Origin: an uncultured Candidatus Saccharibacteria bacterium
Lineage (GTDB): Bacteria; Patescibacteriota; Minisyncoccia; Phycocordibacterales; 2-02-FULL-43-11
Length of the DNA: 64,000 bases
Direction: 5' to 3'
Assembly (NCBI GenBank): GCA_964348785.1
Contig: CAYGDO010000002.1
Location: 2,238-66,237 of the forward strand
Shown here: positions 1-63,639 of the stretch, in pieces
Layout of the letters: the number at the start of each line of letters is the position of its first letter
Numbering within the stretch: the first letter of the stretch is position 1
Notes under the pieces: model-generated
What the model saw: the letters and a program-made list of their open reading frames with translations, nothing else
What the model was told of the DNA's origin: nothing
Databases searched by the model: none
Program-made: the position numbers and the translations under genes

Positions 1-19
1 GTGGAAAAGTAAGGAGGAG

Positions 20-214
20 ATGGAAAAATATATTTTAACCAATAAGGCCGACATTGGTGAAGAACTTGCAGATGTTCTGTACTGGGTTTTGCTTATGAGT
101 AACGATTTAAAAATAGACGTACTTGAAGCGCTTGAAAAGAAAATCTCAAAGAACGAAGAAAAATATCCGGTTGAAAAAGCAAAGGGTAAGCATACTAAAT
201 ACAATAAACTATGA
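20..214 (+). CDS. MazG-like nucleoside-triphosphate pyrophosphohydrolase domain protein (may extend upstream of window; no in-frame stop before pos 20)
   Basis: Translation EELADVLYWVLLMSNDLKIDVLEALEKKISKNEEKYP matches MazG/NTP-PPase helical core; AGGAGG RBS 8 nt upstream of ATG; stop overlaps next start (ATGA) -> translational coupling. Confidence 0.45.
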   Translation: MEKYILTNKADIGEELADVLYWVLLMSNDLKIDVLEALEKKISKNEEKYPVEKAKGKHTKYNKL

Positions 215-1323
215 TGGACTTAACAGGCGCTCTAAACGCCAAACAATTCTATAGGTTTACGGGACCACCAGAACATTGGCTTACAGCATTAAAGCACTGG
301 ACTTGGGGACTAGAAGACCATCATCGAGAACGATGGAAAAATATACAAACCGGCGATGTGTTTTTTATTCATAGTACTGGCGCACAAGCATCAGCGTTTA
401 ATAATGCAACTTCAGGAATAATTGGAATTGGCGTTGTGGGCTTCGATTTCTCAGTAAAAGAAACTCCTCTTTGGCATTATGAGATAAAAAACGGTGTAAA
501 TAGATGGCCACTATTAGTTCCACTTACGGAAATATATTTATTTAGTGAATTACCTGACCCGGCAACATGGGAATCCCCTGAGCCTAAAAATGACACAAGT
601 ACAACAAAGCTCATTGATCAGTTACTCGTAAATCGAATTCCGGTATCCAACATTAAAGGGTTTCCCCAGATGGGAAGTTTTTCTAGTGTATCTTTTGATG
701 TAGCGAAACAGATTTTATTTCAAGATAAACCCCTCTATCTATACTCCGGTCATTCTTTACGAGGTCAAATTAAAAATGAAGATAAACTATCAGACATGGC
801 TGAAGTACATAATGCGACTGAAACTCTACGCTCGGCCGCTTCTCTGAGGTTTTTGGAAGAATTAAATAGACGAATGATTGTTAAACCATTTTCGCACGTG
901 ACTAGGAATAATGATATTCTCGCACGCGCTGAGCTAACCCACCATACTGTTTTAGAACAGCTAATAAGTATTTTTCGCAATAAAGGCTATGTGACTCTTT
1001 CAAATAAACACGTGGATTTATTCGCTTATAACGAGTCAAGATCTTTTCTTTTTGAGGTAAAAAGTACTGAAAATAGAAATTTTCGTGTTCAAGCACGCAA
1101 AGGAATTGTCCAGTTATTTGAGTATGATTATTTCGAAATCAACAAATTCAAAGAGGAAAAGAATATCAAATTTAAGGAGTCATACGATTTACTAGTTCCG
1201 TCACAAGAACCAAAAGATTCTTCCTATATAAGATTCATTAATTCGCTTGATCTTGGTGTTGCGATGGTTAAAGACAAAAAACTAATAGCTATTGGTAACG
1301 ATAGTGGCTTTTCAAATATATGA
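211..1323 (+). CDS. EVE (PUA-like) domain fused to PD-(D/E)xK nuclease domain; putative modification-dependent (type IV-like) restriction endonuclease
   Basis: N-terminal ~120 aa fits EVE pattern (W..GL.D..RERWKNIQTGDVFFIHSTG...GIIGIGVVG...NRWPLLV...); C-terminal region has restriction-endonuclease-like core HVDLFAYNESRSFLFEVKS (D...ExK) followed by QARKGIVQLFEY; ATGA overlap with both neighbours. Confidence 0.5.
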   Translation: MMDLTGALNAKQFYRFTGPPEHWLTALKHWTWGLEDHHRERWKNIQTGDVFFIHSTGAQASAFNNATSGIIGIGVVGFDFSVKETPLWHYEIKNGVNRWPLLVPLTEIYLFSELPDPATWESPEPKNDTSTTKLIDQLLVNRIPVSNIKGFPQMGSFSSVSFDVAKQILFQDKPLYLYSGHSLRGQIKNEDKLSDMAEVHNATETLRSAASLRFLEELNRRMIVKPFSHVTRNNDILARAELTHHTVLEQLISIFRNKGYVTLSNKHVDLFAYNESRSFLFEVKSTENRNFRVQARKGIVQLFEYDYFEINKFKEEKNIKFKESYDLLVPSQEPKDSSYIRFINSLDLGVAMVKDKKLIAIGNDSGFSNI

Positions 1324-2357
1324 AGATTAAATTCAAAAAAGAAGATTTTTATAAATGTTTCGAATTTCCGGTGAAGTATTACCTTGATGAGACTAAATCT
1401 AAATCAAACAGAACCACCGGACAACAGAGAGGACTAGGCTCTATCATAAATGATTTTTTCCTAGGAAAACTAATTGAGATAGGAGTGGCAAGAGCTATTG
1501 AAGAGAGAAGTAATAATAAAAAAATACACTTGGATTTTGATATACATGAATCGGGCGAGAATCACGATAACGATCCTGATATTGTGAAAGTAACAGAATC
1601 GGGAAAAGATCGCGAGCCTAAGTTATATCTTGAAATAAAAAATGTTTCTGAAAATGACAGATTTATAGGCCTTACTTCTGAACAATGCTCTACTATGCTC
1701 GGTAGCAGAATTATTTCAAACGATTCCTCGAGGCTATTCATTGTATACGGAACAGTTTCTTCATCTGATAAATCAAAAATATGTGATGTGTTTGGCGCAT
1801 ATTTGAAATCAGAAATAAAAGATGATCTTTTAGATGGGTTTGCAGATATAGCCGATATTTATCTTGAAATTAAAAGTGTCATAAATACGAAAGAGCTTAC
1901 CGAAAATTGTTTGAAGTTTGATAAAGGGTCGCTGTTTTATGAGACTGAAATATTGGGGCCAGAAATAACTGAGACAAAGGCTAACAAAATAAGAGCTTCA
2001 GAATATGAGACAAAAAATTTAAAGGATGAAGTCTTACCGATAATAATGATGAACAGCTATCCTGCTCCAAAAGAATTCGGCGAATTCAGACTTGAAGGAC
2101 AAACAACCTTATTTATAAAGATTAACGACAAATCAAAAAGAATTTATTTAGACTGCCATTCTAACGGATACATTGAGAATAAATCTCTCGGAAGATTCGA
2201 TCTAAAAAACGGAAAAATGTATGAACTTTTCTTCACAACCATAGGGCGAAATCCTGTTTTAAGCAGAAACAACTTGTGGATCGCCCGGCGGAATGTAAAT
2301 AACATTATCCCAGATACTGTCGAACAGCGAATCGAGTATATAGCAAAAAATATTTAA
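1320..2357 (+). CDS. Putative type II-like restriction endonuclease (PD-(D/E)xK superfamily)
   Basis: Motif NDPDIVKV...(16 aa)...KLYLEIKNV = PD-x(n)-ExK; 3' end overlaps 4 nt convergently with the C5-MTase gene, a common R-M arrangement. Confidence 0.45.
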   Translation: MKIKFKKEDFYKCFEFPVKYYLDETKSKSNRTTGQQRGLGSIINDFFLGKLIEIGVARAIEERSNNKKIHLDFDIHESGENHDNDPDIVKVTESGKDREPKLYLEIKNVSENDRFIGLTSEQCSTMLGSRIISNDSSRLFIVYGTVSSSDKSKICDVFGAYLKSEIKDDLLDGFADIADIYLEIKSVINTKELTENCLKFDKGSLFYETEILGPEITETKANKIRASEYETKNLKDEVLPIIMMNSYPAPKEFGEFRLEGQTTLFIKINDKSKRIYLDCHSNGYIENKSLGRFDLKNGKMYELFFTTIGRNPVLSRNNLWIARRNVNNIIPDTVEQRIEYIAKNI

Positions 2358-3934
2358 GAATTCATTGCTCTCATCATTTGTTTTGCCACAGCTTCAATCA
2401 CTGGAACGCTAACAGAATTTCCAGCTTGTTTGTATAAGGCCGAATCAGAAATTGTGGGCAAAATATAGTCTTTTGGAAAACCTTGAATTCTAAAACATTC
2501 TAAAGGAGTCAATTTTCTTATTCCTTTTTTATCTTTAATTATTGGCACGTTATGTCCGCCCATTCCCATGTTTGCAGTCAGAGTAGGGCATACACTACTT
2601 TTATTTTCTCTAACGTATTGTCTACGCCATTGATAAACTTTTCCTTCTTCTTTTATAAAATTTTTCAATTTTTCAAACAAAGGTTTACCATTGTAATAAT
2701 ATTTTTCTGGAACATTTTTTTCTAATAAATCAGTAATTTTTGTATTCAATTTGATTGGACTAGGAAACTCAAATCTGTCTGAGTATGACTTATTTCTAAA
2801 GCCTACAATATAGATTCTCTCTCTATTTTGAGGAACATTTCCATATTCCATAGTATTTAAAACCTTAATTTTTACATAATAACCGAGGTCTTTTAAGGCC
2901 TCTTCAATAATCCTAAAAGTTTTTCCTCCATCGTGACTCTTTAGATTTTTTACATTCTCCAAAAGAAAACCCTCAGGCTTTCTAGCTTCTAAAATTCGAG
3001 CAATATCAAAAAACAAATTTCCTCTACCTTTTTCATCATTGAATCCTTGTCTGTATCCTGCGATAGAAAAAGCCTGACAAGGAAAACCTCCCAAAATAAA
3101 ATCGAATTTTGGTAAATCATCGATTCCAATCTTTCTAATATCTTCTACTACCAATTTAGAATCCTTAAAATTTAAATCATAAGTTTCTTTACATTTTTGA
3201 TCAAAATCATTTGCAAAAACTGTTTTAAATCCAGCCCTTTCAAAACCTATACGAATACCTCCAATACCAGCAAATAAATCTAAGGTACGAAAACCATGTT
3301 TATTCTTTTTTTGTTTTTCCTCTTGCGGAACATTTTTTATATTACTTATTACTTGAACGACAACTCCTCTAATTTCAACATCTGTCCTAAATAAAGGGCT
3401 CATATTTGGATTTCTAGGTTCCAATCTGATTCTATTTTTTTCGTAATAAAGTCTTTTCAAAGTTGCCTCATTGTCATCAATAATAGCGACGACGGTCTGA
3501 CCGTTTTCTGCAACAGATTGTTTTTTGATAACAACAATATCACCATCAAATATTCCGTCATCAATCATGCTCTCACCAACAACTCGTAAAGCGTAATAAC
3601 CATTTGAATTTTTTATACTAGGGTTTACTATAGAAATAGTATCCTCATGATTTTCGATTACTTCTATAGGCTGTCCGGCAGCAATTCTTCCTAAAACAGG
3701 AATCTCAATGATTGATTTAATTTCTTTCATCGGAGAAAGGCCTCTGACTGAATTTTCCGACCGAGAAAGAAAGCCCTTGTTTTTTAAAGAAGAAATATGT
3801 TCATGCACAGTGGACACAGCCCTAAGTTTTAATTGTTTTTTTATTTCTTCAAAAGTGGGGGATATGCCATTTTCAGAAAAATAACTGTTAACAAAATCAA
3901 ATACTTGTTTTTGTTTTTTTGTTAAATTAGACAT
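2354..3934 (-). CDS. LexA-like repressor (wHTH + S24 peptidase) fused to DNA (cytosine-5)-methyltransferase (Dcm family)
   Basis: N-terminal 200 aa collinear with LexA: MSNLTKKQKQVFDF...HTH, cleavage site RIAAGQP (Ala-Gly), catalytic Ser in VVGESMIDDG and Lys in EATLKRL; C-terminal 320 aa has C5-MTase motifs I FAGIGG, IV GFPCQAFS, VI ENV, VIII QNRERIYIVG, X GNSVSVPV; single uninterrupted 526-aa ORF. Confidence 0.85.
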   Translation of the reverse strand: MSNLTKKQKQVFDFVNSYFSENGISPTFEEIKKQLKLRAVSTVHEHISSLKNKGFLSRSENSVRGLSPMKEIKSIIEIPVLGRIAAGQPIEVIENHEDTISIVNPSIKNSNGYYALRVVGESMIDDGIFDGDIVVIKKQSVAENGQTVVAIIDDNEATLKRLYYEKNRIRLEPRNPNMSPLFRTDVEIRGVVVQVISNIKNVPQEEKQKKNKHGFRTLDLFAGIGGIRIGFERAGFKTVFANDFDQKCKETYDLNFKDSKLVVEDIRKIGIDDLPKFDFILGGFPCQAFSIAGYRQGFNDEKGRGNLFFDIARILEARKPEGFLLENVKNLKSHDGGKTFRIIEEALKDLGYYVKIKVLNTMEYGNVPQNRERIYIVGFRNKSYSDRFEFPSPIKLNTKITDLLEKNVPEKYYYNGKPLFEKLKNFIKEEGKVYQWRRQYVRENKSSVCPTLTANMGMGGHNVPIIKDKKGIRKLTPLECFRIQGFPKDYILPTISDSALYKQAGNSVSVPVIEAVAKQMMRAMNS

Positions 3935-3989
3935 ATTGATATAAAAAATCTTTAGCGCTACACTTATATTATAACCGAAAAAAAACCGA

Positions 3990-4664
3990 ATGAGTCAGCA
4001 AGTTATCCACAATATAAAAAAATACTGGAAAAAAATTTGTAATTTTTTTCTTAAAAAGGGGTTGCCTTTGTTAATAACTCTTATTTTTCTTATTCCCCCT
4101 TTTCTTAGTTTACATGCTTTTGTATTTTCAGAAATAAGTTTCAAAATAAAAACTGAGAAACCTAATGATGGAATACTAAAAATATCTATACTAAAAGAAG
4201 AGGTGAGATATCCTGCATATCAAGATATGATTTCTAAACTATTACAGATACCTCTAAACCTAAATCACTACAATGTATGTTTCCAAAATAAAAGTTATAA
4301 AAAAGAATCTGGAAAAAAAGAATTTTTACCATTAGAAGACGTCACCTTAATAAAAAGTGGTGATCCAAATAATATAATTGAACAATTTGACATGCTAAAT
4401 GAAGATTATGTCTGTAAAAATATAAATCTTTATGAAACAACAATATCTAAGGGAACATATCAAATAAACTTCAATTCCATACCCCAAGAAATAGAAACTA
4501 AAGTAGATATCACAACCACCCCTACGGCCTCTTTAGCCATAACAGACAAAATCATAGGTGTCACAGCTTTCACTCTAGGATTATATGGTATTTTTTTAAT
4601 AATAAGAGAAGTATATTTAATTATAAGTAAAAGAATAATGGAGCTAAAAAAATCCGACGACTAG
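3990..4664 (+). CDS. Hypothetical membrane protein (N- and C-terminal TM helices)
   Basis: ORF with hydrophobic segments LPLLITLIFLIPPFLSLHAFVF and IIGVTAFTLGLYGIFLIIREVYLII; no recognisable family. Confidence 0.4.
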   Translation: MSQQVIHNIKKYWKKICNFFLKKGLPLLITLIFLIPPFLSLHAFVFSEISFKIKTEKPNDGILKISILKEEVRYPAYQDMISKLLQIPLNLNHYNVCFQNKSYKKESGKKEFLPLEDVTLIKSGDPNNIIEQFDMLNEDYVCKNINLYETTISKGTYQINFNSIPQEIETKVDITTTPTASLAITDKIIGVTAFTLGLYGIFLIIREVYLIISKRIMELKKSDD

Positions 4665-7699: not shown

Positions 7700-8368
7700 A
7701 TGTTTGAAAGAATATTAGAGGGCCGACAAAAAACGGTTGTAATTTTAGGGTTATGCGTCATAGCGATAGTTTTGGGTTATTTCATATTAAAAGCTAATCA
7801 AGGTAAAAACATGATTGAGACAACAAAAACGATTCAAACTTCAGAAAATTATACTGGAGCAGTCATTGAAACCAATTTGGGCACTTTTAAAATTTCTTTC
7901 TTAAAAGATAAAAGTCCAGAAACAGTTAAAAACTTTGTCACTTTAGCCAAAAAAGGATTTTATGAAAATACTAAATTTCATAGAGTTATCAAAAATTTCA
8001 TGATTCAAGGTGGCGATCCTAACTCAAAAGATGAAGATAAAAGCCTTTATGGAAGAGGAGGTCCAGGATACCAGTTTAACGATGAAATCTCTGATGAACC
8101 ATTGGTAAGAGGTATAGTAGCCATGGCTAATTCCGGACCAAACACAAACGGTAGCCAATTTTTCATTATCACCACTCCAGCAACTCCTTGGCTTCAAGGT
8201 AAACACACAGCTTTTGCTAAAGTTGTAGAGGGAATGGATACAATAGATAAAATAGAAAAAGTTAAATCTGTTGTTTGTTCTCAAGCAGATTATTATGACC
8301 CAACAAAATTCTGCGACGTCCCACTTGATCCTGTAATCGTAAGCAAAATTTCTCTGATAGAGAATTAA
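7700..8368 (+). CDS. ppiB: Peptidyl-prolyl cis-trans isomerase, cyclophilin type, membrane-anchored
   Basis: FHRVIKNFMIQGGDP, GRGGPGYQFNDE, VAMANSGPNTNGSQFFI cyclophilin signatures; N-terminal TM helix. Confidence 0.85.
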   Translation: MFERILEGRQKTVVILGLCVIAIVLGYFILKANQGKNMIETTKTIQTSENYTGAVIETNLGTFKISFLKDKSPETVKNFVTLAKKGFYENTKFHRVIKNFMIQGGDPNSKDEDKSLYGRGGPGYQFNDEISDEPLVRGIVAMANSGPNTNGSQFFIITTPATPWLQGKHTAFAKVVEGMDTIDKIEKVKSVVCSQADYYDPTKFCDVPLDPVIVSKISLIEN

Positions 8369-8376
8369 AACTCCCA

Positions 8377-8426
8377 TTTGGAGGTTCGACCTCCAAACAA
8401 AAAATCGAGGATAGGCCTCGATTTTT
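8377..8426. terminator. Pair of hairpins between convergent ppiB and fmt (bidirectional terminator)
   Basis: tttggaggttcgacctccaaa and aaaaatcgagg-atagg-cctcgatttttt. Confidence 0.55.
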
Positions 8427-8434
8427 TGTTTAGA

Positions 8435-9292
8435 CTATTTCAAACCGTTTTTAAATGCCTCGTAGGTCATTTCTTTTTTACCTTCCGGAATGACTCTTTT
8501 AATGGCAAAAATTTCATCTTGAAATGTTGCTTCCGTAATCTTCACTCTTATATCAAGACCCTTATGATTTTCAAAAAAATAAACGCCGAGAGTATCTTTT
8601 AAAGCCAAATATTTCAAATAATTTTTTAAATTGTCATCTTTAAAATCAATAAGACCATCTTCTTTTTTAAAAAGTTTGGTAAAAGTAGCTTCGTTGTGAT
8701 TTTGGACTACAGGTTTCAATTTGCCACTTAAATAATCCTCGATATCTTTTGCAAACAATTTAGCGCCAGCTTTAGCAAAAATTTCCTCTAAAACATCATA
8801 CGAAAGATGAAAGCCTGGCAACACAATGCCTATTTGAGACACAATATCTCCATGATCCACTTCTTCATCCATCTTCATAATAGTCACACCGACATTTTGC
8901 TCATTGTTTAAAATTTGATATTGAATAGGTGATGGGCCTCGATATTTTGGCAAAAGTGAAGGATGGATATTAAGAACCCCATACTTAGTAAAATCTAGGA
9001 AACTTTTAGGCAAAATTTTGCCAAAAGAGGCGACCAACAAAAATTCAGGATTATATTTTTTCATTTCACCTAAAAAGGCTTCGTCTATTTTTTCTACCTC
9101 CTTAACCTCAATTTTATTTTTTAGAGCTAAAAGTTTCAACGGAGAATCTTTCACAACCAAACCTCGTCCAGCTTTTTTGGGTACAGGACAAACAACTAAA
9201 ATAGGTTCCAAATTCAATTCTATTAAAGTTTTAAGGACAATAACCGATAGACGAGAACTGCCAAAAAAAATGTACTTCAATTTATTTTGCAT
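8435..9292 (-). CDS. fmt: Methionyl-tRNA formyltransferase (start set at internal Met MQNKLKYIFFG; ORF extends to 9334)
   Basis: N-terminal formyltransferase fold, NIHPSLLPKYRGPSPIQ motif, def-fmt synteny. Confidence 0.85.
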   Translation of the reverse strand: MQNKLKYIFFGSSRLSVIVLKTLIELNLEPILVVCPVPKKAGRGLVVKDSPLKLLALKNKIEVKEVEKIDEAFLGEMKKYNPEFLLVASFGKILPKSFLDFTKYGVLNIHPSLLPKYRGPSPIQYQILNNEQNVGVTIMKMDEEVDHGDIVSQIGIVLPGFHLSYDVLEEIFAKAGAKLFAKDIEDYLSGKLKPVVQNHNEATFTKLFKKEDGLIDFKDDNLKNYLKYLALKDTLGVYFFENHKGLDIRVKITEATFQDEIFAIKRVIPEGKKEMTYEAFKNGLK

Positions 9293-9884: not shown

Positions 9885-9930
9885 AAAATTAGAATAACCT
9901 ATTTAAAAAACCTTGCAAATGAAACATTCA

Positions 9931-10045
9931 CCCCATTAGAAGCCACGGACATTGAATTTAGATCAAGAAATATTTTTAATAATTATCAAAAATCCAACCG
10001 CAAACAAACATCAATATCCTATATATGTCCTCACCTCTAACGGGA
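9931..10045. repeat. MITE-like palindromic repeat, copy A (degenerate), TIRs CCCCATTAGAAG / CCTCTAACGGGA
   Basis: Shares terminal inverted repeats and internal tagat(c/t)aag motif with copies at 11984, 22057, 57136; right end abuts priA stop codon. Confidence 0.5.
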
Positions 10046-63568: not shown

Positions 63569-63639
63569 CGGGGCGTAATATAGTGGTCGTATACACCCTT
63601 CGGGAGGGTGAGGCCCGAGTTCGATTCTCGGCGCCCCGA
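63569..63639 (+). tRNA. tRNA-Pro (anticodon CGG)
   Basis: CGGGGCG-TA-ATAT-AGTGGTC-GTAT-A-CACCC-TTCGGGA-GGGTG-AGGC-CCGAG-TTCGATT-CTCGG-CGCCCCG-A cloverleaf, U33, G37. Confidence 0.8.

Follow-up and report, generated by a model that had tools for sequence, protein, structure and literature searches.

The closest described counterparts of the gene reported here are the SsoII-type autoregulatory C5-methyltransferases of Type II restriction-modification (R-M) systems (M.SsoII, M.Ecl18kI, M.EcoRII, M.MspI and M.ScrFIA; PMC3874152), in which an N-terminal DNA-binding region binds the enzyme's own promoter and sets the balance between methyltransferase (M) and restriction endonuclease (R). The gene lies at 2354..3934 on the minus strand of a 64,000-nucleotide stretch of DNA from an uncultured Candidatus Saccharibacteria bacterium (contig CAYGDO010000002.1, positions 2,238 to 66,237; the whole stretch is called the window below) and encodes a LexA repressor joined to a C5-cytosine DNA methyltransferase. 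Like the SsoII-type enzymes, the product is a C5-methyltransferase with an N-terminal DNA-binding region that would act on its own promoter and on the M:R balance. However, this N terminus is a full LexA of about 200 residues, with a PF01726 winged helix-turn-helix (HTH) and an S24 autoprotease instead of a short HTH; the predicted operator consists of direct repeats lying within the spacer of the promoter, the M and R genes are convergent, and the signal-sensing, self-cleavage apparatus appears intact from its sequence. Pfam and NCBIfam reveal no homology between the N terminus of the fusion and the regulatory HTH of SsoII or Ecl18kI, and the fusion would thus work like these enzymes without being a member of their group.

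Other R-M systems such as PvuII (PMC2175313) rely on C proteins, which, like the LexA part proposed here, are dedicated transcription factors within the cassette that time M against R. In contrast to LexA, C proteins are small HTH_3 activator-repressors without a sensor domain and are co-transcribed with R. In 19 of 80 related cassettes the nuclease gene is followed by such a controller gene, whose product is a typical 73-aa HTH_3 protein; the cassette in the window has none. With the LexA/SOS family (TIGR00498) the fusion shares full-length equivalog status, the Ala-Gly bond and Ser/Lys dyad, a predicted operator in its own promoter and a direct-repeat box of 11-bp period; it differs in its covalent link to a DNA methyltransferase, in its place inside a mobile R-M cassette and in that no further regulon members showed up in the sampled flanks, which, like the window, contain neither dinB nor uvrB. 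In Type I systems, restriction alleviation after DNA damage is achieved by ClpXP proteolysis of the HsdR restriction subunit, and to our knowledge nothing equivalent has been established for Type II systems. The outcome that we propose for the fusion resembles it as a post-damage shift away from restriction that spares unmodified DNA, but the route would be transcriptional, via LexA self-cleavage.

Type II R-M systems damage their own hosts and induce the SOS response (PMC3874152). This main review of R-M regulation brings in LexA solely in the context of toxin-antitoxin systems, and the SOS response solely as something that restriction sets off. An earlier note on this DNA, made from the sequence alone, had not recognised a LexA module on a methyltransferase as anything described, and we likewise found no published description of a LexA-methyltransferase fusion or of LexA-type control of R-M in the literature covered, outside of which Sanchez-Osuna et al. 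2017 lies. The parts are familiar, namely LexA, Bsp6I-like R-M systems and methyltransferases with autoregulatory N termini; what is new is an autocleavable, signal-sensing repressor on a methyltransferase, recurring across enzyme families. The LexA fusion probably makes DNA methylation responsive to DNA damage.

A complete LexA in frame with a complete C5-methyltransferase

The open reading frame (ORF) at 2354..3934, coordinates that include the stop codon, is uninterrupted and encodes 526 amino acids. All features of the gene and its promoter given below are on the minus strand. The LexA winged-HTH DNA-binding domain spans residues 1-65 (3740..3934; Pfam PF01726, E 1.7e-15) and contains the recognition helix AVSTVHEHISSL. 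It is followed by the S24 autoprotease and dimerisation domain (residues 79-193; 3356..3700; PF00717, E 1.4e-29), in which the predicted self-cleavage bond Ala86-Gly87 (3674..3679) lies within RIAAGQP (83-89), and the dyad residues Ser122 (3569..3571) and Lys160 (3455..3457) lie within GESM (120-123) and ATLKRL (157-162), with bond and dyad at the canonical S24 spacing. A Lys/Glu/Gln-rich linker (194-214; 3293..3355) leads to the M.Bsp6I-like C5-cytosine DNA methyltransferase domain (215-526; 2357..3292). PF00145 covers residues 215-521 of this domain (E 4.2e-93, model positions 1-323 of 324), which carries FAGIGG (motif I), PCQ (IV, 285-287, with the catalytic Cys286 at 3077..3079), ENV (VI, 326-328), QNRER (VIII) and GNSV (X).

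The NCBIfam models agree with these calls: the first 199 residues match the lexA equivalog TIGR00498 with 185.4 bits (cutoff 110.95; model positions 1-202 of 203), and the rest of the protein matches the dcm model TIGR00675 with 343 bits. In comparisons to solved structures, residues 2-196 can be aligned with E. coli LexA from one end to the other, and residues 209-524 with M.HhaI, the closest solved methyltransferase. The earlier note had read the gene as a complete LexA fused in frame to a complete Dcm-type enzyme. All the motifs that it named (cleavage site, Ser/Lys dyad and methyltransferase motifs I, IV or PCQ, VI or ENV, VIII and X) are present in the translation, and separate profile matching of the two halves returns significant hits to LexA_DNA_bind, Peptidase_S24 and DNA_methylase, which confirms the protein as a genuine complete LexA joined in frame to a complete C5-methyltransferase. 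Existing resources see one half at a time. The PADLOC defence-system library recognises the methyltransferase half and not the LexA half, and public annotations call such proteins either 'transcriptional repressor LexA' or 'DNA (cytosine-5)-methyltransferase 1', each of which misses one half; comparative studies of SOS regulons that count such genes as plain lexA would be affected.

The fusion is widespread. In a scan of one genome per GTDB species, at least 520 patescibacterial genomes were seen to encode a relative, as an unbroken single ORF, and the best 80 of them are 71-85% identical and belong to the Paceibacteria/Parcubacteria (Nomura-, Giovannoni-, Vogel-, Moran-, Uhr-, Falkow-, Staskawicz-, Zambryski- and Taylor-bacteria) together with one Shapirobacteria genome. 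More than 120 clusters, defined at 90% identity, were retrieved in a protein search; each contains all three domains and matches with 79-84% identity at 100% coverage. In a library clustered more coarsely, at 50% identity, the fusion family forms essentially one cluster, and the nearest unfused methyltransferases are 55-61% identical. No fused version was found among IMG/VR viral contigs, 72,556 plasmids or the INPHARED phages, and a phage or plasmid origin of the fusion was rejected on this basis. Many Paceibacteria-like contigs with the cassette carry the label 'uncultured Candidatus Saccharibacteria', and short ones are filed under Flavobacteriales, Rhabdochlamydiaceae, Bdellovibrionales and Gammaproteobacteria bins (L024, L028, L055 and L070; L-numbers denote individual loci, P-numbers individual proteins and F-numbers partner or neighbour gene families). 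Such contigs are probably misbinned or mislabelled.

Conservation within the family follows the functional residues. Among 78 aligned full-length homologues Ala86, Ser122 and Lys160 are each conserved in 78 and Gly87 in 77, while the positions neighbouring them vary; PCQ, ENV, QNRER and GNSV are each found in all 78. Mean column conservation is 0.80-0.89 in the domains and drops to 0.58 in the linker, the least conserved segment, whereas the target-recognition region, at 0.91, is the best-conserved part of the protein. These homologues come from independent assemblies and every one is a single ORF (521-529 aa aligned length), which excludes, without recourse to reads, the frameshift or chimera at the LexA-methyltransferase junction about which the earlier note had been concerned. 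That an assembly, frameshift or annotation error has merged two adjacent genes, for which nothing speaks beyond the general possibility in metagenome-assembled contigs, therefore has a vanishingly small probability, given also that the linker is conserved yet variable in length and that the relatives span so many species.

The restriction-modification cassette and its target

In all related loci with enough sequence, a gene directly downstream abuts or overlaps the stop codon of the fusion, and it is convergent except in L072 and L081, where it is co-directional. Among 80 related cassettes these partner genes are drawn from about eight unrelated families. Three have recognisable domains in Pfam: F1 (~187 aa, 26 loci; RE_Bsp6I), F4 (~388 aa, 10 loci; NgoFVII C-terminal DNA-binding domain) and F6 (~150 aa, 8 loci; PD-(D/E)XK endonuclease, PDDEXK_5). 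The others are F3 (~355 aa, 13 loci), F9 (~285 aa, 6 loci), F12 (~348 aa, 5 loci and the present window), F14 (~279 aa, 5 loci) and F19 (~315 aa, 3 loci). A gene for a Vsr mismatch endonuclease lies upstream in seven loci. The F12 gene of the window (1320..2357, plus strand, 345 aa) overlaps the fusion with its stop codon by 4 nt. Its family has 73 members, all without annotation, with the invariant residues D72, P86-D87 and E105-x-K107, and its AlphaFold2 model reaches a pLDDT (predicted local distance difference test) score of 93.5; by invariant motif and predicted fold the product is a PD-(D/E)XK nuclease and, from its position, the candidate restriction endonuclease of the cassette. It had no match in PHROGs or in a profile-based sequence search against the Protein Data Bank. 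One F12 member (P0324) is annotated from a bin of Micrarchaeia, a DPANN archaeon, a hint that ultra-small bacteria and archaea exchange R-M genes or that the sequence was wrongly binned.

The cassette is sharply delimited. Nucleotide similarity between loci sets in abruptly some 90 nt ahead of the ATG and extends no further than the stop codon of the fusion; the flanks beyond have nothing in common, and the upstream gene is different in every genome. On these grounds the fusion is read as the M gene of a discrete, non-syntenic, mobile Type II R-M cassette. The earlier note had grouped the neighbouring genes on both sides into one co-regulated locus. The divergent gene at 3990..4664 drops out of such a unit, since conservation begins within the short upstream region and the upstream gene is never the same, while the convergent neighbours are not generic co-repressed genes but the restriction-endonuclease side of the cassette. 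Contig CAIRHC010000009.1 (Vogelbacteria) carries two cassettes, L008 and L041, one with a Bsp6I-like and the other with an F14 partner; as both have an identical operator, they should cross-regulate. At L025, L031, L033, L044, L065, L068 and L071 a large serine recombinase (F7, ~445 aa) is encoded no more than about 6 kb away from the cassette; in most of these seven loci it is the direct neighbour, on one side or the other, and it may be the agent of cassette mobility.

The target of the cassette is probably GCNGC, based on its partner families, its nearest unfused relatives and the composition of the DNA. Bsp6I cleaves GC^NGC, and the recognition sequence of NgoFVII is GCSGC. The closest unfused methyltransferases, 57% identical, are encoded on plasmids of Streptococcus thermophilus and Lactococcus, where the neighbouring genes bear the annotation 'Bsp6I family type II restriction endonuclease'. 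These Bsp6I-type enzymes lack a LexA part and, unlike them, the fusion family has swapped its partner among about eight families, of which the PD-(D/E)XK nuclease of the window is unrelated to Bsp6I. Measured against a maximal-order Markov expectation over about 1020 pentamers, the four GCNGC pentamers rank 1-4 as the lowest both in the window (16-17 observed versus 33-41 expected; observed/expected ratio 0.39-0.51) and in 1.13 Mb of related loci (ratio 0.54-0.61). GCGC, the M.HhaI target, which is present in the leader, shows no depletion, and an M.HhaI-like specificity was therefore rejected. The highly conserved target-recognition region fits a single specificity served by interchangeable isoschizomeric nucleases, and F3, F9, F12, F14 and F19 are unannotated nuclease families whose members are probably isoschizomers for GCNGC. 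The probable target occurs within only 5 of 78 promoters, which lends no support to the alternative raised in the earlier note, in which the HTH would anchor methylation at particular operators. Second to GCNGC in depletion within the window comes the pentamer TTGAC/GTCAA (78 observed, 132 expected); CATG, CGCG and GATC are also low in the window (ratio 0.64-0.69), and CCWGG and GGWCC are depleted in the related loci. These additional depletions may reflect other R-M pressures or avoidance of -35-like sequences.

Promoter, operator and the LexA lineage

Upstream of the gene, the direct repeat TTCGG-N6-TTCGG (3975..3990), with a period of 11 bp, fills the 17-bp promoter spacer between a -35 region (3991..4000), which reads TTGCTGACTCA here and has the consensus TTGACT in relatives, and the -10 hexamer TATAAT (3968..3973), which lies 1 nt after the repeat and is retained by 64-69 of the 74 promoters aligned. 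The 9-mer TGTGGATAA (4003..4011), which is the consensus DnaA box TTATCCACA in reverse complement, precedes the repeat by about 13 nt, and at about the transcription start there is a conserved TGTAGC(GC) element, here TGTAGCGC (3955..3962). Within the window this is the sole perfect occurrence of the repeat; 75 of 81 loci have it, each a single time, 40-57 nt ahead of the start codon. Across the 74 promoters the layout is TGTGGATAA(C), about 13 nt, a TTGACT-like -35, the 17-nt spacer TTCGG-N6-TTCGG-T and TATAAT, then about 5 nt, TGTAGC(GC)AAA, an A/T-rich leader and the ATG, typically 56 nt after the first TTCGG. Even in rearranged promoters the repeat is kept though inverted (L066, and L075 as TTCGA-N6-TTCGA).

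A LexA-box-like palindrome, which the earlier note had suggested looking for in 3935-3990, is absent from that interval. The conserved element is the direct repeat, and a palindromic operator upstream of the gene was rejected for this reason. The strongest argument at hand for the repeat as the LexA site is its concerted change with the recognition helix: in proteins with STAH(F/Y)(H/Y) instead of ST(V/I)HEH, both half-sites change together from TTCGG to (C/T)TTCTA, while the 11-bp period and the TGTGGATAA box are retained. From position and co-variation we infer that TTCGG-N6-TTCGG is the LexA operator. Direct-repeat LexA boxes of the same 11-bp period, GTTC-N7-GTTC, are known from Alphaproteobacteria (PMC8565304), and the promoter of P0213, a 777-aa relative, contains GTTC-N7-TTTC. 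A dimer bound to a repeat in the spacer would exclude RNA polymerase.

Two further promoter elements are conserved. The DnaA box is exact in 52 of 79 promoters, has one mismatch in 12 more and does not co-vary with the recognition helix. At a Moranbacteria locus (L100), TTATCCACA-like boxes cluster at dnaN-dnaA (8331-8451 and 9917-9937), with 8 observed, 2.3 expected and none of 200 shuffles reaching 8. Since the TGTGGATAA element is the exact complement of the consensus box and such boxes cluster at dnaN-dnaA, it may be read by DnaA, which would give lexA and methyltransferase promoters a DnaA input. The TGTAGC element is more than 90% conserved among the aligned promoters and is also present in a standalone lexA promoter (L142). 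No conserved RNA structure is predicted for the 5' leader from TGTAGC to the ATG, and a role of the element in such a structure was discarded; the A/T-rich leader also contains no Shine-Dalgarno-like sequence. Tandem arrays of 11-bp TTCGG units, with no LexA gene adjacent, were found at L150 (~2439-2500, minus strand), L136, L160, L176 and L182; examples are four GTGTTCGGTAC copies before a TATAAT and TTCGG(T/C)TATAA repeats.

The same promoter precedes standalone lexA genes. With the LexA part of P0213 as query, 2506 relatives were retrieved, including many standalone proteins of 196-203 aa with 52-60% identity as well as fusions to PF01555 and PF02086 methyltransferases. A collection-wide metagenome scan for the operator plus -10 gave 83 hits; 30 of these have a LexA-module gene directly downstream, eight of the 30 being of the 525-aa type, and most remaining hits are intragenic or within tandem repeats. 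The standalone lexA at L142 has the complete promoter architecture with the DnaA box and is followed by uvrB. At L151, on an unrelated metagenome contig from the 0.1-um fraction of Hainich groundwater, the operator sits in a TTGACT...TATAAT spacer (931-953), 29 nt before a gene (960-2177) that Pfam assigns to the IMS, impB/mucB/samB Y-family polymerases; this DinB gene is the only SOS-type target other than lexA that we saw. As standalone lexA of the same clade and dinB share the operator, the module qualifies as a genuine LexA of the Patescibacteria, equipped with the SOS box of its lineage, and a private operator of a dedicated non-SOS repressor, which we had considered, was withdrawn. Judged from these promoters, the fusion has inherited the ancestral lexA promoter. 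Standalone lexA genes at L091, L106, L139 and L140 are directly followed by a conserved gene of 271-303 aa in which Pfam recognises no domain, and the surroundings of the L091 pair (resolvase, Fic, Zot-like and ArdC-like genes) suggest a mobile element. In Moranbacteria, a lexA with the full promoter module (L100, 5711-6745; GCA_002790655.1) overlaps a 344-aa ORF with a D...ELK motif and no Pfam match, and the pair adjoins dciA, dnaN and dnaA.

Nor is the fusion a one-off design: on the sequence evidence, this LexA lineage is repeatedly fused to, or placed just before, unrelated methyltransferases of at least four families. In one unfused arrangement (L093 and L095-L097; P0451, P0413) a 196-aa lexA lies 2-25 nt upstream of an 832-840-aa methyltransferase gene with C5 and Eco57I-like N6 domains, together with a convergent ~395-aa gene and an operator CCTTC-N6-CCTTC abutting the -10; P0213 (L083) is the fused form of this arrangement. 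LexA is also fused to N6_N4 methyltransferases (477-621 aa), to an enzyme with Eco57I/N6_Mtase and TaqI_C domains (888 aa) and to a different C5-methyltransferase (550 aa) whose partner is an LlaMI-family endonuclease, at L109, L126, L134, L156, L171, L124, L166 and L098. The 621-aa fusion at L109 has a full-length MvaI/BcnI endonuclease as its abutting convergent partner, of which L098 keeps just fragments, and Pfam recognises nothing in the partners at L126, L134, L156 and L171. The residues of the cleavage bond and dyad (Ala-Gly, Ser and Lys) are intact in P0213, P0365, P0443 and six metagenome fusions (L109, L124, L126, L156, L171 and L166). The module was further seen beside a PLD-family nuclease operon and in mobile-element contexts.

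This lineage raises the question whether the fusion is the host's own SOS master regulator, maybe its only LexA of the canonical clade, with the methyltransferase as passenger or SOS effector and the R-M link secondary. That explanation overlaps with an SOS-controlled R-M cassette instead of excluding it, and it draws on the promoter and operator shared with standalone LexAs, one beside uvrB, and with dinB. No second LexA of the canonical clade was found in the window or any flank, and the window has no standalone lexA at all. LexA-family genes are present less than 10 kb from the cassette at L025 (3287-3994), L054 (6006-6584) and L078 (7432-8076); they are about 30% identical to the LexA part of the fusion and score 117-142 bits against TIGR00498, compared with 175-185 for R-M-linked proteins. 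The L025 copy sits among a ParB-methyltransferase, a terminase-small-subunit-like HTH protein and a large serine recombinase and may be a prophage repressor. The lower scores and this setting led us to reject the three as true host LexAs; all they show is that these genomes have a LexA-family protein besides the fusion, which nevertheless counts against a master regulator. So do the discrete, sharp-edged cassette with a new genomic context in each species and always a nuclease partner, the two copies with different nucleases on one contig (L008 and L041), and the module's presence on at least four unrelated methyltransferase families, each with its own endonuclease. In addition, LexA-module genes are the only ones preceded by the exact operator across 1.25 Mb drawn from 88 sources, and no further copy lies in promoter context at 0-1 mismatch. 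We therefore consider the master-regulator explanation unlikely and return to the R-M cassette under SOS control.

A proposed damage response and its alternatives

In the model that we propose, the fusion would dimerise via S24 and place two winged-HTH domains on TTCGG-N6-TTCGG in its own promoter spacer, so that the methyltransferase would repress its own synthesis. In a naive cell, which has no repressor, the methyltransferase would be produced first and then held at a low steady state. C5-methyltransferases are mutagenic, which would make a low steady state desirable and account for the frequent Vsr neighbours. DNA damage, including double-strand breaks from self-restriction, would generate filaments of RecA on single-stranded DNA. 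Prompted by these, the protein would cut itself at Ala86-Gly87 and lose its DNA-binding domain; the promoter would become derepressed, and more methyltransferase, still joined to the S24 domain, would accumulate. With convergent stops shared between the genes and no terminator-like hairpin at the M/R junction of the window, stronger M transcription would probably run antisense into the nuclease operon. The net effect would be a damage-triggered shift towards protection, to which the upstream DnaA box may add a replication-linked input. As the operator is the SOS box of the lineage, the cassette would be plugged into whatever SOS circuit its host has. We judge the chances of this model as a whole, with autorepression, RecA*-triggered self-cleavage that derepresses the methyltransferase and built-in restriction alleviation, to be about even.

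Several considerations weigh against it. We infer each of its steps, from DNA binding, self-cleavage and RecA dependence to the stability of the product and the direction of the physiological effect, and what we say on binding, cleavage and RecA dependence comes entirely from sequence analysis. The sequences themselves show the intact domains, the conserved residues, the anatomy of the cassette, the place and conservation of the operator, its co-variation with the helix and the depletion of GCNGC. The -35 hexamer of the window is a poor match to the consensus, and the DnaA-box-like element is an alternative site for the winged HTH, as the operator was assigned by position and co-variation. An AlphaFold2 model of the full fusion reached a mean pLDDT of only 51, because the alignment is too shallow in diversity, and was not used. 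The case for GCNGC is indirect; the closest solved methyltransferase, M.HhaI, recognises GCGC and differs in its target-recognition region. Neither the window nor 1.13 Mb of related flanks contained recA, a sample too small to be informative.

The LexA part could instead serve solely as a constitutive autorepressor and dimerisation module, like an SsoII-type N terminus or a C protein, with cleavage of no physiological role. Autoregulation alone would account for the operator position and the need to make methyltransferase first, non-cleaving LexA proteins exist, and RecA was not observed in the same small sample. Against this stands the maintenance of Ala-Gly, Ser and Lys in the 78 homologues and in the fusions to other methyltransferases while surrounding residues vary, as a pure dimerisation role would not maintain all three. 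Such a silent module is in our view decidedly unlikely. The earlier note had proposed that self-cleavage could detach the DNA-binding domain from the methyltransferase; the strict conservation of the cleavage residues makes RecA*-type cleavage with release of the winged HTH plausible, whereas cleavage itself stays a prediction.

Fragments of E. coli LexA are degraded by ClpXP and Lon after cleavage. If the S24-methyltransferase product were degraded in the same manner, the methyltransferase could fall rather than rise, which would also weigh against the proposed shift towards protection. Protection would then drop and the nuclease would kill the cell that is damaged or infected, as in an abortive-infection or addiction-type switch; R-M systems do kill when the M:R balance tips, inducing SOS (PMC3874152). 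However, cleavage would also derepress the promoter and raise synthesis, and a whole S24 domain plus linker separate the methyltransferase from the cleavage site, so that we regard a suicide switch as improbable.

Should cleavage indeed favour protection, the protecting enzyme would carry the damage sensor itself and be freed from autorepression exactly when breaks appear. We know of no mechanism by which Type II R-M systems sense such damage and respond, and this would be the first built-in mechanism of restriction alleviation and autoimmunity feedback for them. Being widespread and modular, with several families of methyltransferases and nucleases, it would be a general regulatory strategy in an uncultured radiation of reduced genomes in which regulation is poorly understood. 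More tentatively, and with somewhat less than even chances, a whole class of patescibacterial Type II systems may be hard-wired to SOS, with at least four methyltransferase families and Bsp6I-, MvaI/BcnI- and LlaMI-type partners, and the DnaA box may couple methyltransferase supply to replication initiation. The cassette would also represent a compact module of damage-inducible promoter, repressor and enzyme.

In the window, the F12 nuclease gene is the last of a three-gene convergent operon with 4-nt overlaps. The operon starts with a gene for a MazG-like pyrophosphohydrolase (1..214, plus strand), which encodes 115 aa in the full contig and is cut by the window edge. A 370-aa ORF (211..1323, plus strand) follows and is translationally coupled to the nuclease gene downstream. 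Its N terminus is weakly EVE-like and its C terminus, with the motif D...EVK, resembles weakly an Hjc-like PD-(D/E)XK domain; it may be a modification-dependent nuclease. This ORF was beside the fusion in no other locus examined, and its membership in the R-M system is uncertain. The flank of the cassette (contig ENA ERZ27247837, 170,396 bp) is ordinary chromosome with mreB, murA, def, fmt, ppiase and gdh. Near the far end of the window, where the Rfam tRNA model is silent at its gathering threshold, ARAGORN predicts a tRNA-Pro(CGG) at 63569..63639.

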